Positions 9,428 to 58,005 of a DNA stretch of 64,000 nucleotides are shown piece after piece. How positions within the stretch are numbered: position 1 is the first letter of the stretch; each line of letters opens with the position of its first letter. Below the pieces are notes generated by a model, which had not been told where the DNA came from, searched no databases, and worked only from the letters and a program-made list of their open reading frames with translations. The stretch comes from a virus (taxonomy: Duplodnaviria > Caudoviricetes): IMG/VR virus record IMGVR_UViG_3300044556_000086, positions 29,434 to 93,433 of that record, one strand, 5' to 3'. The position numbers were made by a program, and so were the translations under genes.

Positions 9428-9466
9428 TTCATTAATAGGATATTAAAACATAAAGGAGACTAAGCA

Positions 9467-10372
9467 ATGAAAGGGTACGAAGAAGAAAATACGCAAGTAA
9501 GGAAAGTAGGTCGTCCTAGAAAGAATCATAGCACTACTCATGAACTGGTTCATGAAGAACCTATTCATGATTTAGAACCAAAAGAATCTGTACAGAATGA
9601 ACCTGAGGTAGAAAAAGCAGGGGCAAAAAAAGAACCTTTGAGTTACGAAGTTACAGTAACGCTTCCTTCTAAAGGTTTACTGTATAAGGAAGAAGGGATT
9701 CCTGCTGATATTTCTTTGAGGGGAATGACCACAAAAGAGGAAAAGATTCTTTATGCTTCTCAGGGTGGGAGTGTCTTTAAGAAGATTCTAAGGAATTGTG
9801 TAGTAAGTCCGAAGAAGTTAGATGTCAATAAACTGGTATTGGCTGATGAAATGTTCCTTATTCTTCAGCTACGGATGGTTACCTATGGTGATTCTTACAA
9901 GGTATCTGCTACATGTCCGAATTGTGGGTCTAAGAATTCTTTTACTATTAAGTTATCTGATTTTGAAACAGAATATCTTGATGATGACTTTACAGAGCCC
10001 GTAGAAGTAGAATTACCCAGAAGTGGGGACACCATAACATTTAAACTACTACGGAATGAAGACTTGGAACAAGTACATAAGTATTCAAAGAGAAATGCTA
10101 AGCAGTTCAACCAGAACATCCGTGAAGTAGAATATATCTGCCGGTTGGCTAAGTATATTACTTCTATTAACGGAAAACCAGTAGACTTCATTGATGCAAA
10201 GGCTTATGTAGAAAATATGCAGTCTATGGACTCTAGAAAGTTACAGACAGCTATTTCTAAGATTCAGTTCGGTGTAGATACTCTGGTCACGGTAACATGT
10301 CCGGATTGTGGTGAAGATTTTGATTTCATTATGCCCTTGACTTCTGAGTTTTTTCGCCCCGACATTGAGTGA
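9467..10372 (+). CDS. T4 gp26-like baseplate hub / tail assembly protein
   Basis: LPSKG...MTTKEEKIL...CPNCG...CPDCG...FF repeated architecture. Confidence 0.75.
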   Translation: MKGYEEENTQVRKVGRPRKNHSTTHELVHEEPIHDLEPKESVQNEPEVEKAGAKKEPLSYEVTVTLPSKGLLYKEEGIPADISLRGMTTKEEKILYASQGGSVFKKILRNCVVSPKKLDVNKLVLADEMFLILQLRMVTYGDSYKVSATCPNCGSKNSFTIKLSDFETEYLDDDFTEPVEVELPRSGDTITFKLLRNEDLEQVHKYSKRNAKQFNQNIREVEYICRLAKYITSINGKPVDFIDAKAYVENMQSMDSRKLQTAISKIQFGVDTLVTVTCPDCGEDFDFIMPLTSEFFRPDIE

Positions 10373-10631
10373 TGATAATACGGAAGAGGAAAATCTAAAA
10401 ATCAGGGATATGAGGATGGGTATGTTTGAGTCCATCATGAAGGAACAGTTCCAGTTGACTTATTTTGGAAAAGTAGATTATCAGTCTACAAACGATATGA
10501 CTACGTTAGAGAGGCATATGATGTACAGGTTACTCGTAGAGCAGAAAGAAGAAGAACGAAAAGCTCAGGAAGAAGCCATTAAGAAAGCAAAAGAAAAAGG
10601 GAATAAACATCGGATGCATAGAAGACGATAG
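10365..10631 (+). CDS. gp51-like baseplate hub assembly protein
   Basis: Follows the gp26-like gene; MTTLER..Y..L motif. Confidence 0.55.
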   Translation: MSDDNTEEENLKIRDMRMGMFESIMKEQFQLTYFGKVDYQSTNDMTTLERHMMYRLLVEQKEEERKAQEEAIKKAKEKGNKHRMHRRR

Positions 10632-10786
10632 TACTCTATAGTAGGTGGTCTGGTATGGTTCATAGGAAGAAGAATAAATTTGAATGGATAGACTGGTATT
10701 GTTTCGATAAGCAGTGTTTCTATTTACCGAAAAAGTTTCCCTATCGAAAATGGAAGAAAGAGGTAGTAAAGAAATACAATGCTTAT

Positions 10787-12212
10787 TTGATGGCGGGTGG
10801 GAAGACCCACGGTTTCAACCGTGGGATGAAAGCCCGCTTTCTCTTGTTTTTCTCTTACTTTTGTTATATAATATATATATAACAAGAAAAGAGGTGAAAT
10901 TAATATGTTCTTAACTCAATCCAACGTAATACGCCACCTTTCGAAAGATGAATATGCCATGCTTGCGGAGATGTGCCGATATTCTAATAATCTTTACAAC
11001 GTTGCTCTTTATAACATCCGGCAATACTATTTCAGCGAGAAGAAATTTCTGACATACGAAAGTAACTATCATGAATGCAAAATTAACGAGAATTATGGAC
11101 TCCTGCAAGCTGGTGTGGCACAGCAGACCTTAAAAGTCGCTGACCGCAGTTTTAAGTCATTTTTTAATCTCATTAAAAAAGCAAAGTCTGGAGAATATCG
11201 TTTTCAAGACATCAAGATTCCACATTACCGTGAAAAAGGCGGGATGTTTGTCTTGGTGCTGTCTACCAATGCCATCAATATCAAAGACGGCTTCTTGCAG
11301 ATTCCTATGAGCAGGGCTTTCTCGAAGGCTCATGCTGGAAAGTTGATTAAGATTGCATTTCCTGAACGCCTTGCCGATAAGAAAATCAAAGAAGTGCGTA
11401 TAATCCCGATATTCAAAGGACAGTATTTCAAGATTCAGTATGTCTACGAACAGGCAGAACAGAATCTTAATCTTTCGCAGGATAACGCTCTTGCTATCGA
11501 TATAGGATTGGAGAACTTTGCGACTTGCATAACCACTATTGGGACTTCGTTCATTATGGACGGACGTAAACTCAAATCAATCAACCAATACTGGAACAAA
11601 CGCAAGGCACAACTTCAATCTATAGCAGACAAGCAGAAAAATAAATCCACGAAACTCATCCAGTGTATTACTACGAAACGCAACAACCGTGCCAAAGATT
11701 ATGTTCGCAAGACATCCCGATACATCGTAAACTATTGCATCGACAACAATATCGGAACAATCATTTGTGGTTACAACAGTGATTTCAAGCGTTCCATTAA
11801 TCTCGGAAAGATGACCAATCAGCAGTTCACACAAATCAGCTTTGGTTCTTTACGTGAGCAGTTGTCCAGTCTTTGCGAACAATACGGTATGAGATATATA
11901 GAGCAGGAAGAATCCTACACATCAAAGGCAAGTTTCCTTGACCTCGATGAGATTCCTGTCTATAATCCCGAACAGCCGTACACGGGAAAATTCAGTGGCA
12001 AACGCATTCATCGTGGCTTGTATCGGTATTCTGATGGAAGAATTGCTAATGCTGACTTAAATGGTGCGGCAAACATCATGAATAAAAGTAAGCAGAACTA
12101 CGATTTTGTAGAACTGTGTAAGGGGCTTTTGGCAAGCCCTTCAAGAATAAGGATTGCTTAACGGTAATCAAACTTCTTTAGAATCCCACGAATTTATTCG
12201 TGGGAGTGTCAA
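10787..12212 (+). mobile_element. IS200/IS605 (IS1341-like, tnpB-only) element
   Basis: LE hairpin CCCACGGTT-TC-AACCGTGGG with AAGA at +16..+19 after TTAT; RE GAAT+CCCACGAAT-TT-ATTCGTGGG...TCAA; no tnpA. Confidence 0.85.
10905..12161 (+). CDS. tnpB: RNA-guided endonuclease TnpB
   Basis: NLYN, AIDIGLENFA (RuvC-I D), EESYTSKAS, NADLNGAANI (RuvC-III D); distinct codon usage. Confidence 0.95.
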   Translation: MFLTQSNVIRHLSKDEYAMLAEMCRYSNNLYNVALYNIRQYYFSEKKFLTYESNYHECKINENYGLLQAGVAQQTLKVADRSFKSFFNLIKKAKSGEYRFQDIKIPHYREKGGMFVLVLSTNAINIKDGFLQIPMSRAFSKAHAGKLIKIAFPERLADKKIKEVRIIPIFKGQYFKIQYVYEQAEQNLNLSQDNALAIDIGLENFATCITTIGTSFIMDGRKLKSINQYWNKRKAQLQSIADKQKNKSTKLIQCITTKRNNRAKDYVRKTSRYIVNYCIDNNIGTIICGYNSDFKRSINLGKMTNQQFTQISFGSLREQLSSLCEQYGMRYIEQEESYTSKASFLDLDEIPVYNPEQPYTGKFSGKRIHRGLYRYSDGRIANADLNGAANIMNKSKQNYDFVELCKGLLASPSRIRIA

Positions 12213-12321
12213 TTGATGGTAAACTTGTCTGCTGACCTTGACTATGTTAATATATATGTATGTGAGTATTCCTAAGTAGATACTGTTGATGGAAAAAGAT
12301 ACTTTCATAGTGTAGAGAAGG

Positions 12322-12849
12322 GTGAAAAATAAAGATATGGTTAGAAAAATTGTAGAAAGTTATACTCTTTCCGATACATTATTCCAGGTAAAGGGTATTA
12401 ATGGTAAAGTACAGGATGCTTTGCAGAAGTTCATTACTCATAAGATTCTAAAAGATGAACTTACAGATGTTGAACTAGATATGAGTGTAACGGACTTACA
12501 CGGCTATTCTGTAGACAGTGCTAAAGGTATCGTAACAGAAGTCACGATTATCTGTTTTGTATCTGGTTCAGAAGATAGTGATGTAGTGGGTAAAGACCTA
12601 AAGAAGAAGTTCGGCAGTTATGCTGATTTAGAATATAGTGATGATGAGAATGTATGGTATGTCTATATAGACAATACAGATGATATTGCCGAATTTTTCC
12701 AGGACATGAAAAAACATGGATTTGACTCCGCTGATAAGATGGTAGAGGAAGTATATCTGGAAGATATTAAAGCTGACCAGGAAGAGCTGGAACAGGAATG
12801 GAAAAGTGAAGATATCGAACAGAATCGGGAATACTGGAGAAGTCGTTAA
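12322..12849 (+). CDS. acidic hypothetical protein (paralog of 12998..13447)
   Basis: Shares ..VTI.. and Y(I/V)(D/E)..D.I..FF......G(F/W)D..D with the next gene. Confidence 0.7.
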   Translation: MKNKDMVRKIVESYTLSDTLFQVKGINGKVQDALQKFITHKILKDELTDVELDMSVTDLHGYSVDSAKGIVTEVTIICFVSGSEDSDVVGKDLKKKFGSYADLEYSDDENVWYVYIDNTDDIAEFFQDMKKHGFDSADKMVEEVYLEDIKADQEELEQEWKSEDIEQNREYWRSR

Positions 12850-12882
12850 TCTAATCTTACAGAACTGAATAGTATGTATAGG

Positions 12883-12920
12883 AATAGTACCTAAGGAGTA
12901 AAACTTTAGGTACTATTTTT
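12883..12920 (+). terminator. Rho-independent terminator
   Basis: AATAGTACCTAAGG...CTTTAGGTACTATT followed by TTTT. Confidence 0.8.
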
Positions 12921-32700: not shown

Positions 32701-33642
32701 ATGCTGGTAAAGAACTATTCACATCCATTGGATTGGAACATAGGTAGTTTGTTTGCTCATGATGATTTTGTGTGGAAAATTCTAGGAATATGTAAGGAAC
32801 TTGGAATAGACTCAAATATAAAGTATGTGTTTGGGTCTATTCCCTGCAAATTCCAGGGTGGGAGGATTCCTGCTCGTACAGCTACGTTAGAAAACGCAAG
32901 GAAAATCATAAGACGGTATAACAAAGAATTTGGGGTGTCTTGTAGGTTAACCTTTTCTAACGCACTTATCACTAAGGAAGATTTAGGGGATGACTTATCA
33001 AACAGTTTATTACAGATTCTTGAAGATAGTAATAAAGAGTTCGGGGTGCAAAATGGGTTAATGATTACTCTGGACATGTTGGCTGATTATGTAAGGGAAA
33101 CATATCCGTCTTTGGAATTAATCTCATCTCAGGTAAAACCTTCTGTTGAAGTAGGGTTTGGGGATGATAAAGATACAGTGGATTACTATAATAAATTATT
33201 TGATAAATATGATATCGTGGTAGTCAATCCATTCAAAGTACAGGACTATTCTTTCTTGGAACAGATTAAGTATAAAGATAGGGTGGAATTTATTGTAAAC
33301 CATAGGTGTATTCCTAATTGTCCGTTAGTAAAGAAGCATTATATTACTCAAATGCTGATATCCGATAAATTTTTATCTGATGAATCTTGTGATAAGGAAA
33401 AAGAAGATTTATCTGAAATTCATTCTTGGTGTGAGTCTAATAGAAAGAAATATCCATTATTAGGAACGTCTATGTCCGAAGATGATATAGATTTATTACT
33501 AAGTATGGGTTATAAGCACTTTAAAGTAGAGGGACGGGATAATGAAGGTTCTTGTTTCGTACGTGATTTAGGGGATTATGTATTTAATCATCATGAGTTT
33601 ACTAGGGTAAGTCAGGCTATTCTCGGTATGGTAGCTGTATAG
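32701..33642 (+). CDS. peptidase U32-like (Fe-S) protein
   Basis: QGGR; EFIVNHRCIPNCP; HFKVEGR resembles the U32 E..V...C and (F/L)KIEGR motifs. Confidence 0.65.
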   Translation: MLVKNYSHPLDWNIGSLFAHDDFVWKILGICKELGIDSNIKYVFGSIPCKFQGGRIPARTATLENARKIIRRYNKEFGVSCRLTFSNALITKEDLGDDLSNSLLQILEDSNKEFGVQNGLMITLDMLADYVRETYPSLELISSQVKPSVEVGFGDDKDTVDYYNKLFDKYDIVVVNPFKVQDYSFLEQIKYKDRVEFIVNHRCIPNCPLVKKHYITQMLISDKFLSDESCDKEKEDLSEIHSWCESNRKKYPLLGTSMSEDDIDLLLSMGYKHFKVEGRDNEGSCFVRDLGDYVFNHHEFTRVSQAILGMVAV

Positions 33643-45983: not shown

Positions 45984-46913
45984 ATGGCTATATCTTATGA
46001 TTTACGGATAAACGATAGTACACGAATTTCAGAGACAGTAAGTTCTCTCCCATTAGGGTTTATTTTTTATTCTGCTAATGGGTCGAGTACTTTTACAGGG
46101 GCTTTACCTCTAACTGGTGGTTTATATTCTAGGACAACATATAGCACCTTATGGAGTTACATCAACACAAAGGAAGGTGATGTAATCTCTGATTCTGATT
46201 GGAATACAAAGAAAAGTTCTAATTCTACAGTTCCTTATTACTCCTCTGGGGATGGTTCCACTACGTTCCGGGTACCGGATATTACAACTGTACCTTCAGA
46301 TGGTGGTAAGTGGTACGTCAATGCTCTCGGGTATATCACGAATGTAGGGAGTACAGACGTATCTACCTTATATACAGACTGCTATAAGGTATCTGGGGGT
46401 ACCATTACAGGGGATGTGACTATCAATAAAGCCTTGAAAGTTACAGGGGATGTCACGTGTAGTGGTTCCATTACAGGTTCAAAGGTATATAACGCATACT
46501 ATAATGACTATGCCGAATTCTTTCCGAGGGGTGAGAAGACAGAACCTGGAGATATCATAGCTTTAGATATGGATTCTGATGAAGAAAGGTATGTCAAGGC
46601 CACGGAGCATAGCAGGGTAGTAGGGGTACACTCTAATGAATTTGCTATGTTGATTGGTGGTAAACCTGTACCTGTAGGGGAAGATTTCTATAAGTATAAT
46701 CTGAAGGACTATATACCTGTATCTTTGGTAGGCCGTGTTACTGTAAAAGTTAGGGGTCTGGTAAAGAGAGGGGATTTATTGGTATGTTCTGCTACAAGGG
46801 GAGTAGGCAGGGTATATGATGAATCTAAAGATAGTCCAGTAGATATTTTTGGTATGTGTGTCGTAGGTTCCGACCGTGATGACTTACATACTGTAAAGGT
46901 ATTACTAAGATAG
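45984..46913 (+). CDS. tail fibre with collar domain and C-terminal intramolecular-chaperone (peptidase G2-like) domain
   Basis: G.L.L.G...SR..Y..LW...GDGSTTFRVPD; YNDYAEFF...GD...VGV.S...V.L.GRV.VKV.G....GD.L. Confidence 0.8.
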   Translation: MAISYDLRINDSTRISETVSSLPLGFIFYSANGSSTFTGALPLTGGLYSRTTYSTLWSYINTKEGDVISDSDWNTKKSSNSTVPYYSSGDGSTTFRVPDITTVPSDGGKWYVNALGYITNVGSTDVSTLYTDCYKVSGGTITGDVTINKALKVTGDVTCSGSITGSKVYNAYYNDYAEFFPRGEKTEPGDIIALDMDSDEERYVKATEHSRVVGVHSNEFAMLIGGKPVPVGEDFYKYNLKDYIPVSLVGRVTVKVRGLVKRGDLLVCSATRGVGRVYDESKDSPVDIFGMCVVGSDRDDLHTVKVLLR

Positions 46914-46929: not shown

Positions 46930-48042
46930 ATGGGAGACAGGAAATGTTTTGTAGCTAAAAATGTAGATACATTCTTTATCATGCTGGGTATGGAGTGTAA
47001 TTTGAACTGTAAGTATTGCTTACAGCATGATTTAGTGGAACATCCGATACAGCACGACATTAACCCAGATATCTATGACTTCATAGAAGGTTGTGTAAAA
47101 GCTACTGAAAATACCATACGAATACAGTTCTTTGGTGGTGAACCTCTACTATTCTTTGGGTCTATTAAAGAAATAGTCACAGAGTTGAATCGTAGGGAGT
47201 TAAATGTAGGCTATTCTGTCATTACAAATGGGAAAGCTATTACACAGGAAATGGTAGACTTCTTCATAGATAATGACTTTACAGTAGGTATCTCATGGGA
47301 TGGATTTAATGTAATCAACTCTAGGGGTTTCGATGTATTCAAAGAAGGTAGTAGACAGAGAAATCTTATCTTGCAGTTGCCTGACTTGTGGATAACTTCT
47401 GTACTAAGTGCTAGTGCCTATCCAAAGGAACTACTAGATGCTCAGCAAAAGATGGATGATGAATACATGAAACGGCATGGATATCATGCTAAGTTCAATG
47501 TAGATGACTTGATGACCTTTGGGGAACTTCCGAAAGAAGTATCTGATATAGACCTGGAAAGGGTAGAGTCTGAAGTAAGGGATATGGCAAAAGAGTTTAT
47601 TCATGATTTAAAGACTCAAGCAGATATCAGTGACCATTATACAAGGAATGTGTATATCAGTAGTAAGTACTTTCTGTTAAGGGGTTTCTATAAAAAAGAA
47701 CTGGAAAATGAAGAAGATAGATATACAGGGGAAAAGTGCTGTTGTGGAAATGGCTACTATACTCTAAACCTAGACCTTAATGGTAATTTACAGGTATGTC
47801 ATAATAAGTCCACTCCTATAGGTACGATTTATGATAACTATGATGAGTATATTAGTAAGATAAAAAGTAATGATACTACTCATGATAGGGTGGATATGTG
47901 TAGGGAATGTCCTGCTGTATTCTCTTGTCGAGGTGGCTGTAAGCTGATAGAAGATAAGTACAGGGATACATATTGTTCCCTAAAACGAGCTACAAACGTT
48001 CCGGTATTAGAAGAAGTATTGAAAATTAATCAAATGGAGTAG
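46930..48042 (+). CDS. radical SAM/SPASM enzyme 1
   Basis: CNLNCKYC; FFGGEP; ITNG; ISWDG; SPASM C..G...GNLQVCH...CRECP...CRGGC...YC. Confidence 0.95.
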   Translation: MGDRKCFVAKNVDTFFIMLGMECNLNCKYCLQHDLVEHPIQHDINPDIYDFIEGCVKATENTIRIQFFGGEPLLFFGSIKEIVTELNRRELNVGYSVITNGKAITQEMVDFFIDNDFTVGISWDGFNVINSRGFDVFKEGSRQRNLILQLPDLWITSVLSASAYPKELLDAQQKMDDEYMKRHGYHAKFNVDDLMTFGELPKEVSDIDLERVESEVRDMAKEFIHDLKTQADISDHYTRNVYISSKYFLLRGFYKKELENEEDRYTGEKCCCGNGYYTLNLDLNGNLQVCHNKSTPIGTIYDNYDEYISKIKSNDTTHDRVDMCRECPAVFSCRGGCKLIEDKYRDTYCSLKRATNVPVLEEVLKINQME

Positions 48043-48048
48043 TTCAGT

Positions 48049-48315
48049 ATGGCAAATGGAACAATAAATCAGACGAATTTCACAGATTATTCTGATATCC
48101 GGGCTACTGGAAGTACCGAGATTAAAGCAGTACACATTAATGAGATGCAGGATGCTTTGACTAAGTTGGAAACTTATGTCAAGGGTGTAGATAATTGTGG
48201 GTATACGAATTGTTGTCAGTCTTGTCAGAATTCCTGTACTTGTCAGAGTTGCCAGGGTTGTCAAGGTTGTCAGTCTTGTCAGAATTCGTGTACTTGTCAG
48301 AGTTGCCAAAGGTAA
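48049..48315 (+). CDS. Cys/Gln-repeat precursor-like protein A
   Basis: 13 Cys in the last 39 aa; CQSCQNSCTCQSCQ occurs twice. Confidence 0.85.
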   Translation: MANGTINQTNFTDYSDIRATGSTEIKAVHINEMQDALTKLETYVKGVDNCGYTNCCQSCQNSCTCQSCQGCQGCQSCQNSCTCQSCQR

Positions 48316-48348
48316 GTAAGTTTTATATTCTTATTGTGGGGTATGTAA

Positions 48349-48702
48349 ATGTCAGTAGATACAAATACCAAAATAACATCTACAGAGATGGGTGATATAA
48401 AGACAAGGATAACTTCTCTAGTATCTAAATCTAAGCTTACATCTATAGATGTATCTAGTGTAAGTACTGTGGGTAAGATATCGAAGTCTACTATTATATC
48501 TTTGCAGGATGCTATATGGTCATTAGAAAGTAACTTCAGTAATAACTGTTGTGAATCGAATCATTGTCAGACGTGTCAGTCCTCGAAATGTCAGGGTTGT
48601 CAGAGTTGTCAAAGTCAGAGTTGTCAGTCCTCGAAATGTCAGTCATGTCAGTCCCAGTGTGATTGTAATTGTAATTGCCATAGTAATGACAACTCTGAAT
48701 AG
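48349..48702 (+). CDS. Cys/Gln-repeat precursor-like protein B
   Basis: 14 Cys in the C-terminal half; CQS/CQG/CQT repeats ending CDCNCNC. Confidence 0.85.
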   Translation: MSVDTNTKITSTEMGDIKTRITSLVSKSKLTSIDVSSVSTVGKISKSTIISLQDAIWSLESNFSNNCCESNHCQTCQSSKCQGCQSCQSQSCQSSKCQSCQSQCDCNCNCHSNDNSE

Positions 48703-48721
48703 TTAGGGGTGTGTTTATCCG

Positions 48722-49510
48722 ATGAATTTTCATGTATATAGACCTAAATTCATAGATAGTAGTAAATTTATAGGTAGATCTGTATCCGTGGTTTACTCTT
48801 TTGAGGAATCTGAGGGTAGTATATCTTTTGGGTTTAAGTTGATTAGTATGTTTGACTCCAGTAAGATATACTCTGACAGAGTAATTACTGTCAATAAAAA
48901 GGACTATTCTGGAGGTCTGTATTCTATAACTTCTTCTAGGACTGGGGATAGACTAGGTGTTCATATATTCCCTAAATATGCAGGGAGGAATGTATCAAGA
49001 CCTTTCCTGTTGGATGATGATGTGTGTAATCTGGTAAGGTTCTATATTACAGATGATTTGCAGAATATGTATATTTATTTATACTATAATGATACTTCTA
49101 CAGATATGTTGGGAAATTTGCCTATAGAAACTGTAGATTTAGGGATTAATAATAGTGTAGATGGTTTATTTTTTTCTAAATGTCCAGAAGTACGTGAAAA
49201 AATAACGAAATGGAATGCTAAGATAAATTTACAAAATAAAGTAAATGCTTATAATTCTATTTCTTACTTAGAAGGTCAGTTAGATGTTCTGTATAAAATC
49301 GTGGAAAAGCTAATAGAAAAGACAGGAATAGATGTATCTGAATATAAAGAACTCCTAGATAGTGTGGATTCTAATAGTGTACTAACTCTGAAAGATGTAA
49401 AAGTAGTTACGAAAGATATATTAGATGATAAGTCTAATGTGCGAAAAGCTCAGACAGAATACTACAAAGTGTTAAAGGGTTTTTCAGAAGGTGTGGATGA
49501 TAAGACATGA
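48722..49510 (+). CDS. uncharacterised protein in the radical SAM cluster
   Basis: 262-aa ORF; ATGA coupling to rSAM2. Confidence 0.75.
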   Translation: MNFHVYRPKFIDSSKFIGRSVSVVYSFEESEGSISFGFKLISMFDSSKIYSDRVITVNKKDYSGGLYSITSSRTGDRLGVHIFPKYAGRNVSRPFLLDDDVCNLVRFYITDDLQNMYIYLYYNDTSTDMLGNLPIETVDLGINNSVDGLFFSKCPEVREKITKWNAKINLQNKVNAYNSISYLEGQLDVLYKIVEKLIEKTGIDVSEYKELLDSVDSNSVLTLKDVKVVTKDILDDKSNVRKAQTEYYKVLKGFSEGVDDKT

Positions 49511-50454
49511 TAACTGATACTATGACGGGTAAGAATTTCATAAGTCTAGTACTAGGTCTGGACTGTAACTGTCAGTGTTCTTATTGTTATCAGAACATAT
49601 TAAAAGAGAAATGTCATAAGGTTCTGGGTAAGAAAGACTTAGATAGAGTTATCCGGTATATCACGGGTAGGTATAAGGAAAATACAAATACGGCTCTTAC
49701 TCTGTTTGGGGGGGAGCCTTTGTTGTATCTAGATGATGTAAAGTATGTTTTATCTTCATTAGATGGTACTCAAGGGATGTTTAAAAGGATATTTACGAAT
49801 GCTTACTTATTAACAGAGGAAATAGTAGACTTATTAAATAGATACCATGTTCATGTCATAATATCTAATGACGGAGAAGACTCTGAAAGGGTTAGGGGAT
49901 ATAATATCTTAAAGGATAAAAAGATAGTCCGTCTGATACAGTCTTTAGATTCTTATGCTATATCTAGTGTGGTATATTCTGGAAATGAGGATGTATTCAA
50001 AACAAACAGGTACCTTAGAAAGTATTTACATAATCTAAAGTCTAATATGTTCACACCTATGCAGGTGTATGCAGATACAGAAAAGTATGTAAATAACTTT
50101 GACTTTGATATGTACAGGGATTCTATGGTAAGATCATTTTCTGCTGGGTATCAGTGTATTTCTATTTTTGGTGGATATCGGAGTGGATTTTCAACTTTTA
50201 CAGATGGTTCTATTATGAACTTAAATACCAATACTCTGGTAGGTAAGATAGATAAAGACGGGATACGTCATGATTTTGATGTGGAAAAAGAGTTGAGGAA
50301 GAAATCTGGTTGTTTGTTTGAAGAGTGTGAATGGTATAAATCTAAATTCTGTTGTGGTAAGGTATACCAGATAGAAGATAATGTATTTTGTCGTAAGGTA
50401 GCAAAGGTACATAAGGAGATTTTTGATGAGATACAAGGGAGTGTACAAAAATGA
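49507..50454 (+). CDS. radical SAM enzyme 2
   Basis: CNCQCSYC; LFGGEP; FTNA; ISNDG; C-terminal Cys cluster. Confidence 0.9.
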   Translation: MITDTMTGKNFISLVLGLDCNCQCSYCYQNILKEKCHKVLGKKDLDRVIRYITGRYKENTNTALTLFGGEPLLYLDDVKYVLSSLDGTQGMFKRIFTNAYLLTEEIVDLLNRYHVHVIISNDGEDSERVRGYNILKDKKIVRLIQSLDSYAISSVVYSGNEDVFKTNRYLRKYLHNLKSNMFTPMQVYADTEKYVNNFDFDMYRDSMVRSFSAGYQCISIFGGYRSGFSTFTDGSIMNLNTNTLVGKIDKDGIRHDFDVEKELRKKSGCLFEECEWYKSKFCCGKVYQIEDNVFCRKVAKVHKEIFDEIQGSVQK

Positions 50455-51460
50455 CCCGTACTATGAAGTACAGGGTGTAGGGGTTTACCTGGGAAGTAAA
50501 TGTAACCAGGATTGTCTATATTGTAGGGATAAAGCTTTCAGAAAACACCCGGAAGTAACAAAAGACAGTGTTTCTAGGCTTCTAAAGTTTTTAGATACCT
50601 TGAAAGGTCTGAGAGGAATTACCTTAGTTGGTGGGGAACCTTTTCTATATACGGACTATTTAAATTATTTCTATGACTATGCTGATGATAGAAAGTTAAC
50701 TATTCATTTCATCACTAACTCTTTAGGGTTGCAGGAAGATAATATCTGGGATACGTTCATTAAGGATAGAAGGAATATACATATCCAGGTTTCTTATGAT
50801 GGGTCTAATAACTCTAGGGGGTACACTATTCTGGATAATAAGAAAGTTAGGGAAAGGTGTAGTACTCTCATAGCTGAAAGTCGTTTCAGTGTATGTTCTG
50901 TCATTACAAAGGATAGTTGGAACGTAGTATCTATATTCTCTGATTTTTTAAATTCTTTTGGGAATGTGTCTTTTAATTGGATGATTTCTCCCTTATTAGA
51001 GTCAGCTGGGTGTGAAGACTTGAATAAAGAGACACCTATAGATGATTTCTTATACTCTTTCTATCAGTTTTTAAATACGTATAAGTGGTCTGGATTAGCT
51101 AGGTATGTTCTGTTAAAATACCTAAGGTCTATGGATTATCATATAGGTAAAGAAGAGTTATTCTTAGAGATGGATGGTTCTATAATTCGTAGCTGTTTTG
51201 ACTATACACCTATAGGTCGATGGGATAGTGAGGGTATTTCTGAAATATTCAATAAGTCGAATTATTTATCCTTGAATAGTAGTTCCCCTAAGTGTTCTGG
51301 ATGTATGATAAATGAATTATGTATCAAAAGACCAGAGTTTTTCAGTCCGACTTCCTGTCAGATGAGAGTAGGTATGGAAGAATGCATATTCTCTATCATT
51401 AGGGAATCTGGATGTAGTACATTGGAAGAGTTTGAGGGGATGCTTCATGAATTACAATAA
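50423..51460 (+). CDS. radical SAM enzyme 3
   Basis: CNQDCLYC; LVGGEP; ITNS; VSYDG; DG...SC...CSGC....C. Confidence 0.9.
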   Translation: MMRYKGVYKNDPYYEVQGVGVYLGSKCNQDCLYCRDKAFRKHPEVTKDSVSRLLKFLDTLKGLRGITLVGGEPFLYTDYLNYFYDYADDRKLTIHFITNSLGLQEDNIWDTFIKDRRNIHIQVSYDGSNNSRGYTILDNKKVRERCSTLIAESRFSVCSVITKDSWNVVSIFSDFLNSFGNVSFNWMISPLLESAGCEDLNKETPIDDFLYSFYQFLNTYKWSGLARYVLLKYLRSMDYHIGKEELFLEMDGSIIRSCFDYTPIGRWDSEGISEIFNKSNYLSLNSSSPKCSGCMINELCIKRPEFFSPTSCQMRVGMEECIFSIIRESGCSTLEEFEGMLHELQ

Positions 51461-52472
51461 ACGAATACAGATGCCATTCAAACAGTTACGGGTTCATTTT
51501 GGGAATGACTGTAATATGAAGTGTTCTTTCTGTCATTCTATCAGTCTGAATACTAAGATAGACTATAACCCGGATAAGATAGTATCTATCTTTAATGAAG
51601 GTGGATTCACGGCTTGCAGTTATGTGGGTGGAGAAACCACACTATATCTGGATAAGATAGTAGACCTTTCACACAGGTTACCCGCAGGGGTTCGTAACTC
51701 CTTTACAACCAACGGGTCTACTATGGAGGGGGATATACTGGATAAGACTTTAAGGAATATGTTTGTTGTATCTGTGTCTGTGAATGAGTTCACACTGGGT
51801 AGTCTGAAATATGAAGGATTGAAACAGATATACCAGTTAGGTACTTCATGTGTGTGGGATGGAAAACATACCTTAGATGAGATAGATAAGATGTATGATG
51901 AGGTATCTGAGGGTCTTGGTTATCTAAAGTTTCCGTATTATAATTTAGTTCACAGGACAGGTACCAGTTCAGAATTTCACTATACTGATAGTCAAATAGA
52001 TAGGTTCTTATCTGATATAACCTATCGGTTACAGTTAGCCTGTCATTCCTTTGTACGGGGAAAGATTTCTAGGTATTCTATGTTACTACTAACCTTGAAT
52101 ACTTGGTTCTCTTATAAAGGGTTTGGGTGCTGGAGAGATGATTATATTACAGTACAGGCTGATGGGAAGTACTCTCCATGTTCTTATTCTCCTATTTCTT
52201 TCGATGACTTTGAGAAAGCTGATGCTTTCATACGTGGGTCACTTCATAATAAGTTCAAGTGTGACAGTTGTATCGTACCGAAAAACCAGTGTAAAATGTG
52301 TTATCTAAGTCTGGATGATACAGAATGTACAATTTTGCGGGGAGTGTACCAGATTTACATGAGAACCTTAAAGAAGTATCGAATTAACTATATGGAAGTG
52401 TATGATAGGTTACAGCGATACCCGTTTACTATACAAGGAGGGGTTCATTGTGGGGTTGGCGATTCCATATAA
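51447..52472 (+). CDS. radical SAM enzyme 4
   Basis: CNMKCSFC; GGET; TTNG; GC...DGKYSPC...CDSC....C..C. Confidence 0.9.
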   Translation: MNYNKRIQMPFKQLRVHFGNDCNMKCSFCHSISLNTKIDYNPDKIVSIFNEGGFTACSYVGGETTLYLDKIVDLSHRLPAGVRNSFTTNGSTMEGDILDKTLRNMFVVSVSVNEFTLGSLKYEGLKQIYQLGTSCVWDGKHTLDEIDKMYDEVSEGLGYLKFPYYNLVHRTGTSSEFHYTDSQIDRFLSDITYRLQLACHSFVRGKISRYSMLLLTLNTWFSYKGFGCWRDDYITVQADGKYSPCSYSPISFDDFEKADAFIRGSLHNKFKCDSCIVPKNQCKMCYLSLDDTECTILRGVYQIYMRTLKKYRINYMEVYDRLQRYPFTIQGGVHCGVGDSI

Positions 52473-53421
52473 CGGAATAGATTACAAAAAGTATAATCAA
52501 TTTCTGGAAGATAGAAAATCAGATATAGATTACATATACATAGCTAATAACCCTGTATTCAAGGATAGGGATAGGAATATAGCTTATACTGTCTTACAAG
52601 ATGATATAGGGGAAGGATACTATAAAGATTGTGAGAAGTTTCTAGAATATAGACCTAAAGATGTACCTATATTCTTAGATTGTACGGAGTTTTACCATCC
52701 ATCAAACTATAACTCTATGAAAGGGGAAATAGAGTCTTTTCTGATACCCGAATTAGATAGGTACTCTTTTACAGGTATCATAACTTGTGATTACGGGGTA
52801 GCTTCTTATATTAAGAATAATACAGACTATGACGTTATCATATATGGACTATCTAATCTTAGAGCTATGTATTCTTACGAAGAAGACATAGAGGTATCCG
52901 ACTTCATACTGCCATTGGATACGTTACGGAACCGGGATTACGTAGAATACCTAAAGAAAGTAAAGCAGGATTATAATAAAAACTCGTATGACGCTAAATT
53001 CCAAGCTGTTGTAAATAATAACAGGTACTATGGAGATATGTGTTTCAATCAGGATGCCTATAAAGTAACTCGTACAGGGTATATGAAATATGGTCAGTGG
53101 AATAGACCATACGATGAATTCCGTAAGAACTGGGTGCTTCCAAGGTGGTTGAAGATTTACGATGACTTGATTGAAACCTATATCATAGAAGGGTTATATA
53201 CTTATTCAGTAGAAGGGTTATTTAAGACAGTAGATGCTTATATTCATAGAAGTGATGATATTCTACTATCTGATATCGTGTCTACTAGGTTACAAGATTA
53301 TCCAGTAAAAGATATAAAAGGGAAGTTGGCTAGGTGTATGTGCAGGGAATGTGATGTTTCTTGTACGACATGTAAGGGTATTCTATCCGAGTACTATACT
53401 TCTCATAACATTGAAGCCTAG
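52450..53421 (+). CDS. divergent peptidase U32-like protein
   Basis: DIDYIY, GIITCDYGVASYI and AVVN; C-terminal C..C...C..C. Confidence 0.55.
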   Translation: MGLAIPYNGIDYKKYNQFLEDRKSDIDYIYIANNPVFKDRDRNIAYTVLQDDIGEGYYKDCEKFLEYRPKDVPIFLDCTEFYHPSNYNSMKGEIESFLIPELDRYSFTGIITCDYGVASYIKNNTDYDVIIYGLSNLRAMYSYEEDIEVSDFILPLDTLRNRDYVEYLKKVKQDYNKNSYDAKFQAVVNNNRYYGDMCFNQDAYKVTRTGYMKYGQWNRPYDEFRKNWVLPRWLKIYDDLIETYIIEGLYTYSVEGLFKTVDAYIHRSDDILLSDIVSTRLQDYPVKDIKGKLARCMCRECDVSCTTCKGILSEYYTSHNIEA

Positions 53422-53429
53422 ATAATCAT

Positions 53430-53455
53430 AGGGCAGTTGAAAGACTGTCCTTTTT
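53430..53455 (+). terminator. Rho-independent terminator closing the tail/rSAM operon
   Basis: AGGGCAGT-TGAAAG-ACTGTCCT followed by TTTT. Confidence 0.8.
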
Positions 53456-53468
53456 AGTAACTATTTAT

Positions 53469-53501
53469 TTACTTTACATGAAGTAAAATATATGGTATAC
53501 T
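53469..53501 (+). promoter_or_regulatory. sigmaA-type promoter with TTACTT-N6-AAGTAA palindrome, upstream of the replication genes
   Basis: TTTACA(53473)-17 bp-TATACT(53496); AAGTAAAATATATGGTATACT identical to the 5313 promoter. Confidence 0.8.
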
Positions 53502-55376: not shown

Positions 55377-55802
55377 ATGAGTCAGATATCAGTAGAAAAA
55401 GCAGTTAAGTCATTACTATCTAGTGGGAGTTGGTGTGCTTGTAATGTAGCAGGTACATCCTTCATACCTAATTCTGAAAAAGTGCTTCATTATCTACAGT
55501 ATCTGAATAGTTTGCCTTCTGATAAGGATTCTAGTGTTTATCTACGTCTTGAGTATGAGGCAGATAATCCATATGATGAGAACGCTGTAAAGGTGTATGC
55601 TAAGTCTAATGCCTTTAAAGGGAAGAAAGTAAAGATAGGGTATGTTCCTAAGAAACTGTCAGGACTGTTCAGGTATATCTTAAGTTCTGATTTTATAACA
55701 TTGAATATGACTAGACCTAAATTTGTAGGTGGGGGGTACCCTAAGAAAAATATAGGGGTATTCTTTGACTGGAGCATTGAGGAGGTTCGCAAAGATGGGT
55801 AA
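55377..55802 (+). CDS. HIRAN domain protein
   Basis: VAGTSF...LEYEADNPYDENAVKV...IGYVPK. Confidence 0.9.
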   Translation: MSQISVEKAVKSLLSSGSWCACNVAGTSFIPNSEKVLHYLQYLNSLPSDKDSSVYLRLEYEADNPYDENAVKVYAKSNAFKGKKVKIGYVPKKLSGLFRYILSSDFITLNMTRPKFVGGGYPKKNIGVFFDWSIEEVRKDG

Positions 55803-58005
55803 GCAGGAAGCTAAAGCAAAATATACAAACTTCATTCCACCCCATAAAAAGGTAGAAAACTGGTATAAGAACTTTAATTTCATACTGATAGATTCAATGG
55901 AAAAGTTGGAAGGTGTATTCAAAGATGTAAAACCAAAATCCTACTATATGGGTTTCGATACAGAAACAACAGGTCTTGATTTTGAAGAGTTGGATTTAGT
56001 AGGGTATTCTTTCTGTCTGGACGGTAAAAATACATATTATGTCCCCGTATACCATTTTGACTATGAGCATAATCTTGGAGAAGCTTCTGTAGACTTTATT
56101 TATCAGAAGATGGTAGAAGCGAAGAAGGTATTCATGTTCAATGCTAGGTATGATATGCGAGTAATGGAGTATATCGGGTACAAGGATAGAAAAGAAGAAT
56201 TAGATAAAAAGCGGTGGAAGTTTGTCAAGTACGATATGTCTAAGGTAGGTTACTTCGACGTAGCTTGTGCTGTATGGAATTCTGATACAAATATTAAGAT
56301 GCCTTCCTTGAAGTATTCTTCAGAACACTTCTTAGGGTTTTCTCAGATGCACTTTGATGAAGTAGTCGAAAATGCCGGTAATTTCTTTTATTTAAATCCT
56401 TCTACAAATCCGGATGTAGCTTATTACGCTGGTGCTGATGCTTTATGTACCTATTTATTGGTCACTGCTACTGCTAAGTATTTCATTGAAGCTAAGATGG
56501 CTGGTAAATTGGATAATGCTGTTCTATATCCTCTCATGCATTTCGAGAATGAAAAGCTTTGGTTAGATAAAGATAAGTTAGATAGGATGGAAATTGATGC
56601 TAGGAAAGAAGTCGATAGACTGGAAAAAGAAGTCTATGACATGATAGGATATCAGATTAATCTAAATTCCCCTAGACAGGTAGCTCAGGCTTTTTCTCGT
56701 CTTGGAATTGATACAGGGGAACGTACTGCTTCTGGGACAATGGCTACAGGTATGAGTGTATTGAATAATTTACCAGAAGAAGTGTTGAATGAATACCCAG
56801 CTTTAAAGTCTTTTGTAGAATATAAGAAGATGTATAAACTTCTTTCTTCTTATATTTCCGTATATCAGAAGGAAGCAAACTCTAGGGGGTTCTTACGTGG
56901 CTCCTATAAAAACACGGATGCACCTACTGGTCGTTTGGCATGTGGTAAAGATGGGAAGAATCATTTCTTTTCTCCTGTAAACCTGCAAGCTATTCCGAAA
57001 CCTCATGTAGCTATGTATGATGTATTTGATTTAGGGGATAGAAAGTTATTCCGAAAGAAAGATAATATTCTGTTCGGTTATCAGTTCAAAATGAGTCAGT
57101 ATGATAAAGACGGGAACCACATTGTACCTGAAGATAGTTCTTATATTGGAATGGCAGAAGGGATGAACCCAAAGTTTAATCTAAGGGATACTATCTTACC
57201 TAAAATGTATGAAGACTCAGGGGAAGATGAATTCTGTTATTGTACTTGTGACTATGCTGCTCAGGAATTACGTATTACTTCTAATATTAGTCGGGAACCC
57301 ATATGGACAGATGCTTTCTTACATGGCAAGGATGTACATAAGTCTACGGCGATTGCTCTTTGGGGAGAACAAAATTACAATAAGGACTATCGAAAGAGAG
57401 CAAAGGGGTTCAACTTCGGCATAATCTATGGTATGGGTCCTAGTTCTATGGTAGGGAAGAAGTTTGGTATTCATTCTTTACCCGAGGCTGAAGAGTTTTA
57501 CGCTAAATTCCAGAATACCTTACCCACTTTGTTTCAATGGATTGACAGAACTCAGAGACGGGCTAGGAAGATGGGTACCACATACACATTCTTTGGTAGA
57601 CCTCGGCGTTTAAAGTCTTATTACCAAAACGGGAATATCGGGTTCGCAAACAGGACCTCCGTGAATACAGTTATCCAGGGAACCGCTGGGGATATGTTAA
57701 AATTGGTTATGTGTCGGTTATGGAAAAACTTGTATAATAATCCTGAGTATGAGAATGATATTTCATTCATGGTTACTATTCACGATGAAATAGGGAATAG
57801 AATCAGAACAAGCCGGGCTAATGAATTAGTAGGGTTGATAGAAGAAAATCAGACAGTTAAAATTAAAGAGTGGCCCATCCCTATTATTACAGAAGCCTCT
57901 TTAGGGTGGAGTATGGGTAATGTGTTTGCTTTTGAGAGAGTATGGCACACTGATGAGAATGGGAATCGGACTGGGGAATGGCATTATGAACCTAAGTTAG
58001 ACTGA
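55795..58005 (+). CDS. polA: DNA polymerase family A with 3'-5' exonuclease
   Basis: DTETTG, FNARYD and YAGAD exonuclease motifs; TGRL, DYAAQELR, RKRAKGFNFGIIYG, IQGTAGD, IHDE. Confidence 0.95.
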   Translation: MGKQEAKAKYTNFIPPHKKVENWYKNFNFILIDSMEKLEGVFKDVKPKSYYMGFDTETTGLDFEELDLVGYSFCLDGKNTYYVPVYHFDYEHNLGEASVDFIYQKMVEAKKVFMFNARYDMRVMEYIGYKDRKEELDKKRWKFVKYDMSKVGYFDVACAVWNSDTNIKMPSLKYSSEHFLGFSQMHFDEVVENAGNFFYLNPSTNPDVAYYAGADALCTYLLVTATAKYFIEAKMAGKLDNAVLYPLMHFENEKLWLDKDKLDRMEIDARKEVDRLEKEVYDMIGYQINLNSPRQVAQAFSRLGIDTGERTASGTMATGMSVLNNLPEEVLNEYPALKSFVEYKKMYKLLSSYISVYQKEANSRGFLRGSYKNTDAPTGRLACGKDGKNHFFSPVNLQAIPKPHVAMYDVFDLGDRKLFRKKDNILFGYQFKMSQYDKDGNHIVPEDSSYIGMAEGMNPKFNLRDTILPKMYEDSGEDEFCYCTCDYAAQELRITSNISREPIWTDAFLHGKDVHKSTAIALWGEQNYNKDYRKRAKGFNFGIIYGMGPSSMVGKKFGIHSLPEAEEFYAKFQNTLPTLFQWIDRTQRRARKMGTTYTFFGRPRRLKSYYQNGNIGFANRTSVNTVIQGTAGDMLKLVMCRLWKNLYNNPEYENDISFMVTIHDEIGNRIRTSRANELVGLIEENQTVKIKEWPIPIITEASLGWSMGNVFAFERVWHTDENGNRTGEWHYEPKLD

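Follow-up and report, generated by a model that had tools for sequence, protein, structure and literature searches.

The closest described relatives of the system reported here are two pairs of thioether maturase and substrate, CteB/CteA (SCIFF; structures 5WGG/5WHY, TIGR03974) and PapB/PapA (freyrasin, NF047865), in which a full radical S-adenosylmethionine (rSAM)/SPASM enzyme is encoded beside a substrate with repeated cysteines. The only experimental precedent that we found for a protein-sized substrate is CrpC/CrpA of Methanococcus voltae, where an rSAM/SPASM enzyme puts ranthionine thioethers into a Cys-rich protein, not a peptide (PMC13692751). Here we describe a cassette of rSAM genes and genes for small Cys-rich proteins that stands directly behind a tail-fibre gene of a virus (Caudoviricetes), at positions 46930-53421 of a 64,000-nucleotide stretch of DNA (the window; positions 29,434 to 93,433 of IMG/VR record IMGVR_UViG_3300044556_000086). 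It comprises eight open reading frames (ORFs), all on the + strand: rSAM1, protein A, protein B, U262, rSAM2, rSAM3, rSAM4 and P8. An earlier, sequence-only reading of this DNA had listed eight ORFs of these kinds at these positions, and the list was confirmed. Our interpretation, to which we give a probability of roughly 0.55, is that maturases of the ranthipeptide type that lack the recognition element (RRE) of systems for ribosomally made, post-translationally modified peptides (RiPPs) staple an oligomeric, fibre-associated A/B protein; we infer both the chemistry and the location in the virion. The type of chemistry is known, but to employ it in the tail module of a virus would be novel, and full-text searches of the literature returned no description of the cassette.

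The cassette departs from the known systems in several respects. rSAM1 is, like CteB and PapB, a full SPASM enzyme beside repeated-Cys substrates, but it falls far below the cut-offs of both families and is without an RRE. The substrates of the CteA/PapA type are short peptides with a leader, whereas those proposed here are proteins of 88-165 residues with a structured N-terminal unit, and their repeat is CQ rather than CxxxD or Cys...Thr. Also unlike in those systems, up to four or five rSAM enzymes are encoded per cassette, in a tail-fibre operon with no exporter or protease. CrpC differs in possessing an RRE and N-terminal substrate-engaging domains, and CrpC/CrpA is an archaeal, cellular system that has neither a CQ ladder nor any connection with a virus particle.

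All four rSAM enzymes exceed the Pfam cut-off for Radical_SAM (PF04055; 35.7-42.1 bits versus 29.5), and rSAM1 also matches Fer4_12. The CxxxCxxC motif is located at residue 23 in rSAM1 (46930..48042, + strand), 20 in rSAM2 (49507..50454, +), 27 in rSAM3 (50423..51460, +) and 27 in rSAM4 (51432..52472, +), and the GGE motif at residues 69, 68, 70 and 66, respectively; both motifs are thus intact in all four enzymes, as the sequence-only reading had stated. An RRE was sought as an N-terminal PqqD-like domain of about 90 residues ahead of the radical SAM core; none was found in the four enzymes, whose cluster motif starts at residues 20-27. The closest relative of rSAM1 in the PDB is CteB (5WGG; 7.7e-21 with the family profile), the match extending over core and SPASM and pairing CteB residues 96-417 with the profile from position 11 onward. 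Because this alignment begins at CteB residue 96, past the RRE, the RRE of CteB has no counterpart in rSAM1, and the claim that these N-termini leave no room for such a domain stands.

The SPASM region was assessed by the seven-Cys C-terminal motif for two auxiliary clusters (Cx9-15Gx4C ... CxxCx5Cx3C ... C). It is complete in rSAM1 (Gx4C, CxxCx5Cx3C and the final C, with the sequence GNLQVC, CRECPAVFSCRGGC and the final C), with Cys residues that are invariant across six orthologues. The C-terminus of rSAM4 is SPASM-like (Gx4C, CxxCx6CxxC), and those of rSAM2 and rSAM3 match SPASM in part only: rSAM2 combines a PapB-like N-terminal half with a partial C-terminal Cys motif, and rSAM3 has a partial SPASM/twitch-like C-terminus. 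Among NCBIfam models the top match of rSAM1 is PapB, end to end (2.3e-25; 89.6 bits versus an equivalog cut-off of 340); the SCIFF maturase model gives 45.4 bits against a cut-off of 425, and TIGR04463, the type of CrpC/CrpA, is among the matches of both rSAM1 and rSAM2 (~1e-9). The resemblance makes rSAM1 an enzyme of thioether-maturase type (CteB/PapB-like), short of membership in either family. rSAM4 matches, over its full length, the second rSAM of loci L002 (31% identity), L005/L008 (23%) and L015 (27%), shows 48% identity in L123, and is the window's version of a second rSAM that is present in nearly all cassettes; its best solved relatives are viperin-like enzymes, with which the core alone aligns. 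Orthologues of rSAM2 occur in L123 (41%) and L125 (30-33%), and of rSAM3 in L123 (51%) and L125 (29%). A role of the rSAM enzymes in DNA modification (QueE-like) was considered and dropped, such matches being weak and limited to the core.

Protein A (88 residues; 48049..48315, +) consists of one IKAVHxNEL...LE unit, a VDNCG junction and a CQx ladder, and protein B (117 residues; 48349..48702, +) of a two-helix N-terminal region, an FSNNCC junction, a CQ ladder, a CDCNCNC tail and an acidic end. The ladders are made of CQ dipeptides with one to three small residues between them. A contains 13 Cys and nine CQ dipeptides, and B 14 Cys and eight CQ dipeptides; in the other ORFs of the window, Cys makes up 1.5% of residues and the CQ dipeptide occurs three times in ~17,300. 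In the family alignments of A and B, the Gln after each Cys is almost invariant and the spacers are variable. B and most A relatives end in a C(D/N)C(D/N)C tail; window A is without the CNCNC tail that most A relatives possess. The A-type and B-type proteins are two distinct paralogues that are consistently paired, the A-type family being conserved across all related loci, and the B homologues form 48 clusters at 90% identity. A known family of CXXX-repeat targets (TIGR04114/TIGR04115) was rejected as an assignment: A and B have no NCBIfam match at E <= 0.1, and their period is mostly three, not four. The core of window A holds a 43-nucleotide direct duplication of 98% identity (48212-48254 and 48266-48308). 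In Acidaminococcus prophages, A and B vary in length (101-110 and 128-143 residues) even within the 90%-identity clusters P0042 and P0038; these differences arise as CQ and CNC units are gained or lost, and the ladders therefore grow and shrink quickly.

The N-terminal unit of A also occurs outside the ladder proteins. A profile of A residues 1-50 finds 741 representatives, which include A-type proteins and, in addition, many proteins with three tandem copies of a homologous unit, (F/W)TDxxLxxGxxIKAVHIxELRxAIxxL. The three copies make up small proteins of 110-170 residues or stand at the very C-terminal end of large proteins with Ig, fn3 or FG-GAP domains; instances of this widespread domain include P0118, P0130, P0145 and alignment A8, and the C-termini of P0113 and P0187. 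An AlphaFold2 model of this domain shows three helices with extended joins (pLDDT 81.7 overall and ~90 over most of the domain); no match to it was found in Pfam, among PDB sequences, or by Foldseek against the PDB, and the profile of the A N-terminus gave a chance-level match only against the PDB. A has one copy of the unit, and B one clear copy and a degenerate second helix next to the core. Because one copy cannot make the domain alone, A would be expected to oligomerise, either as A3 or with B to give three units.

The fibre protein of the window (309 residues; 45984..46913, +) is the conserved partner 5' of the cassette; its C-terminal ~155 residues are an autoproteolytic Peptidase_G2 intramolecular chaperone (IMC; Pfam PF11962, 26.1 bits versus a cut-off of 25), it also has a weak Pfam match to Collar, and towards the N-terminus it resembles proteins annotated as tail fibres in Erwinia, Ralstonia and Pseudomonas phages (tblastn against cultured phages). 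The fibre stop codon at 46913 is followed by a GAGGAG ribosome-binding site and the rSAM1 ATG at 46930, a span of 17 nucleotides, and the cassette genes are tightly coupled to the fibre gene ahead of them, along with which A and B would be translated. An intrinsic-terminator-like hairpin with a T run (53430..53451, +) is the best + strand terminator candidate and closes the late operon. Coupling of the cassette to the fibre gene, with no terminator before 53430, had been part of the sequence-only reading and holds.

A profile built from six rSAM1 orthologues was scanned against IMG/VR and against ~186,000 species-representative genomes (one per species). It finds 24 orthologous loci in IMG/VR and two close relatives among the representative genomes, one in an Acidaminococcus prophage and one in a Parendomicrobium metagenome-assembled genome (MAG). 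Scans of viral contigs with single sequences of rSAM1 and P8 gave no match, and the profile scan alone succeeded. Synteny was counted over the other loci with readable flanks and an rSAM1 orthologue of at least 41% identity (n = 22, comprising 21 viral contigs and the Acidaminococcus prophage; loci L015-L031, L036-L038 and L043 were taken in). The rSAM1 orthologues of other loci occupy the same position and are 41-52% identical to that of the window. Exactly two CQ-ladder ORFs lie directly 3' of rSAM1 in 22/22 of these loci, and a G2-IMC fibre gene lies directly 5' of it in as many, the gene in that place ending each time in a domain that shares 44-52% identity with the last 155 residues of the window's fibre; counting the window, the core set is found in 23/23. 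Loci reached through B give the same picture. Synteny of rSAM and CQ-repeat genes with fibre genes, which the sequence-only reading had proposed to look for, was thus strongly positive, with rSAM1-A-B behind a G2-IMC fibre everywhere that the flanks are readable. Because dozens of unrelated phages have this core set behind a fibre gene of one kind, they probably cross-link a fibre part enzymatically.

A conventional RiPP system would account for the genes differently. A and B would be leader-plus-core precursors of a bacteriocin, signal or anti-competitor agent that is freed by lysis, and the linkage to the fibre would reflect a moron site. The gene logic is indeed that of sactipeptide and ranthipeptide clusters (an rSAM/SPASM enzyme beside small Cys-rich ORFs whose N-terminal part is conserved and whose core varies), and the number of core repeats varies even within the 90%-identity clusters. 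Phage lysis would also remove the need for an exporter, and the U32-like protein P8 could serve as leader peptidase. However, P8 is missing from most cassettes, and the same fibre type stands 5' in every orthologous locus across unrelated phages, which would be unexpected for a moron; moreover, the supposed leader is structured, and in other settings three copies of its unit build a C-terminal domain of large proteins. Searches of the window cluster against Pfam, NCBIfam and PHROG found no leader peptidase, exporter, immunity gene or signal peptide, and related cassettes likewise gave no leader peptidase, exporter or immunity gene; in the cassettes, the only transporters are of the uptake type (an SDF carrier in L011 and L019-L021 and a Vut_1 protein in L012). 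The claim that exporter and protease are absent held in that none was found in the clusters, with the reservation that P8 belongs to a family that is nominally called a peptidase. Contexts in non-phage chromosomal DNA are almost nil. The outcome against which the sequence-only reading had set itself, namely clusters mainly in bacterial chromosomes with transporters and no linkage to tail genes, is not what was found: the loci are viral contigs or prophages, no exporter is encoded, and only 2 of ~186,000 genomes have a close rSAM1 relative. We regard the conventional RiPP explanation as unlikely.

A complete A module forms the C-terminus of a 708-residue protein with two Laminin_G_3 (lectin-like) domains, and A modules also stand behind a single LamG domain (in a 344-residue protein) and behind a Gly-rich domain; location at the C-terminal end of lectin-like and Gly-rich proteins of 300-700 residues argues against a peptide precursor. 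In siphovirus-type prophages, a 209-residue tail-module protein beside Tal ends in an A/B-like CDCNC...SDD tail. As judged from sequence, these fusions put the A module on fibre-type proteins and support a structural role. In many A/B relatives (P0094, P0243, P0246 and P0255), a Hint domain (PF05203) with Cys as its first residue follows the CNCNC tail without a break; L126, a close relative of the window phage, encodes such an A-Hint fusion within the same cluster (9002-9850), and the domain is absent from window A and B. Since the Hint domain begins with Cys and has no downstream extein, self-cleavage is implied, leaving a thioester at the end of the ladder. By analogy, Hint would be a self-removing C-terminal domain, parallel to the G2 chaperone of the fibre. 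The fibre shares its G2 IMC with fibres of the phi29 gp12 type, and the S74 domain of endosialidases is likewise an IMC. The Hint fusions would parallel these known cases; known IMC fibres, however, have no rSAM requirement and no Cys-ladder partner proteins, and to our knowledge a Hint domain has not previously been described as a C-terminal helper of this sort. The type I cassettes described below contain a free gene for a 133-residue Hint-like protein without that Cys (L005 10433-10834).

Around the core set, three accessory sets recur. Type I consists of the 133-residue Hint-like protein, a 280-residue protein, an rSAM and a 220-residue protein; type II of a pyridoxal phosphate (PLP)-dependent enzyme of Cys/Met metabolism, an SDF transporter and a QueC-like protein; and type III, which is that of the window, of U262 and an rSAM4-type enzyme. 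Type II genes were located in L011 (5647-8652) and L019-L021 (~9736-12883), where the PLP enzyme is of the methionine gamma-lyase/cystathionine lyase family (1e-30); the type II proteins may be a source of cysteine or sulfur for the Cys-rich proteins. L123, L125 and L126 each have a counterpart (25-58% identity) for every gene of the window's eight-gene set, which is therefore under purifying selection as a whole; L123 continues with the same replication module.

Among contexts fetched via B (L009, L011 and L012 being further examples), radical SAM genes adjoin in all and tail genes adjoin wherever upstream DNA is present; L012 begins at its contig end and its upstream DNA is absent. Downstream of the L012 cassette (8484-11049) lie an ADP-ribosyltransferase toxin-like gene (ADPrib_exo_Tox) and a gene for an ADP-ribosylglycohydrolase. 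Carriers include viral contigs of 200-280 kb, among them L002 (281 kb), whose reduced cassette encodes B, a 209-residue protein, one rSAM and A. In the siphovirus-type prophages L005, L006 and L008, the genes run TMP, Dit, Tal, fibre, rSAM, A, B, a pair of accessory genes, rSAM and lysis genes; prophage forms are found in Acidaminococcus intestini (isolates) and A. fermentans (WCA-389-WT-5B, locus L043), with the proteins annotated as hypothetical. A further version, in L013 and L014, comes after the baseplate genes of a myovirus (PAAR, sheath initiator, Baseplate_J), and its enzymes are an rSAM, a YcaO protein and a double rSAM. In L013 (7368-9997) and L014 (5085-7088), the YcaO gene (TIGR00702, 125 bits) and those for the 292-residue rSAM and the 667-residue double rSAM stand beside B-like and A-like proteins; azoline or thioamide chemistry may therefore also act on the ladders. 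In the MAG of Ca. Parendomicrobium (L044 7851-9855), an rSAM1-like gene (32%) is followed by a homologue of the 280-residue accessory protein (35%) with no CQ-ladder protein nearby, and that protein may itself be a partner or substrate of the rSAM1-like enzyme. Against cultured phages, the cluster DNA had no match, and rSAM1 had generic rSAM matches only (<=33% identity).

Cys-rich ladders also invite a reading as metal sites, in which the CQ and CxC tracts bind Zn, Fe or Fe-S, at the fibre tip or inside the cell, and the rSAM enzymes carry out cluster-linked chemistry, epimerisation or methylation. CxxC and CxCxC spacings are typical of metal-thiolate proteins, phage tail proteins that bind Fe-S or iron exist (lambda gpL and T4 gp37), and some cassettes encode genes for sulfur amino acids (the PLP enzyme of a C-S lyase family and the SDF transporter). 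The near-invariant Gln after Cys, however, is a poor metal ligand and a plausible carbon acceptor, and over its full length, SPASM included, rSAM1 is most similar to thioether maturases; we also know of no radical SAM enzyme that loads metals. A metal ladder is, on this evidence, quite unlikely.

U262 (48722..49510, +) is a conserved protein with a strongly conserved C-terminal helical region (SISYLExQxDVLYKI...) and has orthologues in the same position in L009, L015, L123, L125 and L126. No match to it was found in Pfam, NCBIfam, PHROG or the PDB; it has no detectable kinship with the 280-residue accessory family (hhalign probability 0.2), which has no match in the PDB and, with each member checked, none in Pfam. 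A LamG hint for U262 from the ESM Atlas scored <0.9 and was not used, and comparison with a LamG fusion protein showed no similarity.

P8 (52402..53421, +) is a TIM-barrel protein with best matches to U32 that is confined to the window's phage clade; its start is probably the GTG at 52450, because homologues begin at the equivalent position. The sequence-only reading had called it U32-like, a description that holds in part. In its favour, an AlphaFold2 model (a beta/alpha barrel, pLDDT 71.8) has a U32 structure, 5D88, as its top match in Foldseek (E 3e-6), P8 is linked at 0.95 in the ESM Atlas to clusters that carry Peptidase_U32 (PF01136), and one distant homologue carries PF01136 (a weak sequence link, E 9e-6). 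On the other side, P8 itself has no match in Pfam (including PF01136), NCBIfam or PHROG, its profile has none among PDB sequences, and the VIA-align comparison with 5D88 (Z 14.2, rmsd 3.7 over 198 residues) is approached by other TIM barrels (up to Z 13.5). There are five invariant Cys in P8, four of which form a C-terminal Cx4Cx3Cx2C (C312, C317xxxC321xxC324); residues 312-324 contain the radical SAM cluster spacing (CxxxCxxC), yet at the C-terminus. Set beside the U32 Fe-S enzymes (RlhA, TrhP, UbiU/UbiV) and the 'collagenase' PrtC, P8 has a TIM barrel whose top match in two aligners is 5D88 and an invariant four-Cys motif, but its Cys cluster lies in a C-terminal extension and there is no evident substrate or partner subunit. 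The term 'U32-like Fe-S protein' is reasonable but unproven. P8 has no pairwise similarity to a supposed U32-like window ORF (32701-33642) or to the 313-residue gene product that ends the L012 cassette.

The presence of four rSAM enzymes for two small proteins raises a third alternative, in which the enzymes modify another substrate (the fibre, a component of the host envelope or a nucleic acid), and A and B, themselves unmodified, help assembly as factors or chaperones without staying in the particle. Self-cleaving C-terminal domains such as the G2 IMC and Hint are typical of assembly helpers, the nearest solved relatives of rSAM4 are viperin-like (core only), and the Parendomicrobium locus pairs an rSAM1-like gene with the 280-residue protein and no CQ protein. 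Such an arrangement is difficult to reconcile with the position of A and B directly behind rSAM1 in 22/22 other orthologous loci, or with the reduced cassette of L002, which retains only B, the 209-residue protein, one rSAM and A; the YcaO version, in addition, points to peptide substrates. We consider it very unlikely that A and B are mere bystanders of this chemistry.

Under the stapling interpretation, the cassette of the late operon would make and chemically mature a small, oligomeric, tail-fibre-associated protein. The N-terminal units would drive assembly as A3 or as an A+B pseudo-trimer, and, together with the junction, would be the recognition element for the RRE-less maturases, in place of a leader/RRE pair. 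rSAM1 and the rSAM4-type enzyme would install thioether bridges (of ranthionine or sactionine type) between the sulfur of Cys and a carbon of adjacent Gln residues, and the bridged ladder would be a rigid rod or knot, resistant to reduction and to proteases. rSAM2, rSAM3, U262 and P8 would be clade-specific additions for further crosslinks, hydroxylation or trimming, or as a scaffold; in some lineages, YcaO or the U32-like Fe-S enzyme would join the rSAMs in converting the ladder. The product would ride on or cap the fibre, as a covalent substitute for disulfides that is suited to phages of strict anaerobes. The habitats of cassette phages are anaerobic (pig gut, manure and sludge), and these anoxic habitats and the Acidaminococcus host fit oxygen-sensitive enzymes and reduction-proof crosslinks. 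The fuller proposal, in which a part of the fibre is covalently stapled by phages of anaerobes and consists of a split three-repeat domain and a thioether-bridged rod, with self-cleaving Hint or an acidic CxCxC tail finishing or anchoring the C-terminus, is tentative, and we give it somewhat less than even odds.

The wider context of the window is that of a large phage. The 93-kb IMG/VR record, of which the window is the 3' two-thirds, has a CheckV completeness of 45%. Every gene of the window is on the + strand, and because baseplate hub and wedge genes are found upstream of the cassette, the phage is a large one of myovirus type. A promoter-like site (53473-53501) marks the start of the replication module. 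An RNA-library contig of a ~93%-identical relative (two runs of one pig-gut study) spans the fibre gene, rSAM1, A and B, and the remaining cassette genes of that relative are covered by RNA-library contig fragments; since DNA carry-over is possible and the contigs show no transcript, they are counted only as compatible with expression. Upstream of the tail genes, the window encodes a 748-residue polynucleotide kinase/phosphatase-RNA ligase fusion (7181-9427; phrog_8238, 6.7e-188) and a transposase (10905-12161; phrog_506). The DNA polymerase A gene is a single ORF of 746 residues in the window (55765-58005); in relatives of the window phage it is split or interrupted, with a weak intein-splicing match (L123 12722-14473 and L124 7080-11520).

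Several observations weigh against the proposed stapling. rSAM1 is far under every NCBIfam equivalog cut-off, and its chemistry is therefore not readable from family membership; Gln as thioether acceptor would be an extrapolation, by analogy, from Asp, Glu, Asn and Thr acceptors; and CxxC ladders and CxCxC tails would bind metals too. The second unit of B is only weakly detected, a search of the neighbouring fibre proteins found no A/B repeat unit in them, and tblastn of A against the cultured phages of INPHARED gave no match. Morons, too, are known to occupy the site behind fibre genes, and the roles given above to rSAM2, rSAM3, U262 and P8 are guesses. The proposal of the sequence-only reading, a phage system that acts on virion or fibre-tip proteins, gains from the fibre linkage and the fusions; for crosslinking over metal loading, for the pairing of enzymes with substrates and for presence in the virion, we infer rather than observe.

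If the interpretation is correct, this would be the first RiPP-type radical chemistry that builds a component of a virus particle, and radical SAM/SPASM thioether chemistry would extend from secreted peptides to viral structural proteins. It would also account in part for the long-noted wealth of radical SAM genes in the genomes of certain phages, such as the 11-12 in Campylobacter phages CP220/CPt10 (PMC2853527). Maturases that need no RRE and work on a plain, expandable CQ repeat would serve peptide and protein stapling. The analysis also reveals families without a match in Pfam or among solved structures, namely the three-repeat helical domain and the 280-residue and U262 accessory proteins, and the Acidaminococcus prophages offer a cultivable host for the hypothesis. 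For gut phages of strict anaerobes, the cassette would provide a route to covalent, reduction-proof receptor-binding organelles.

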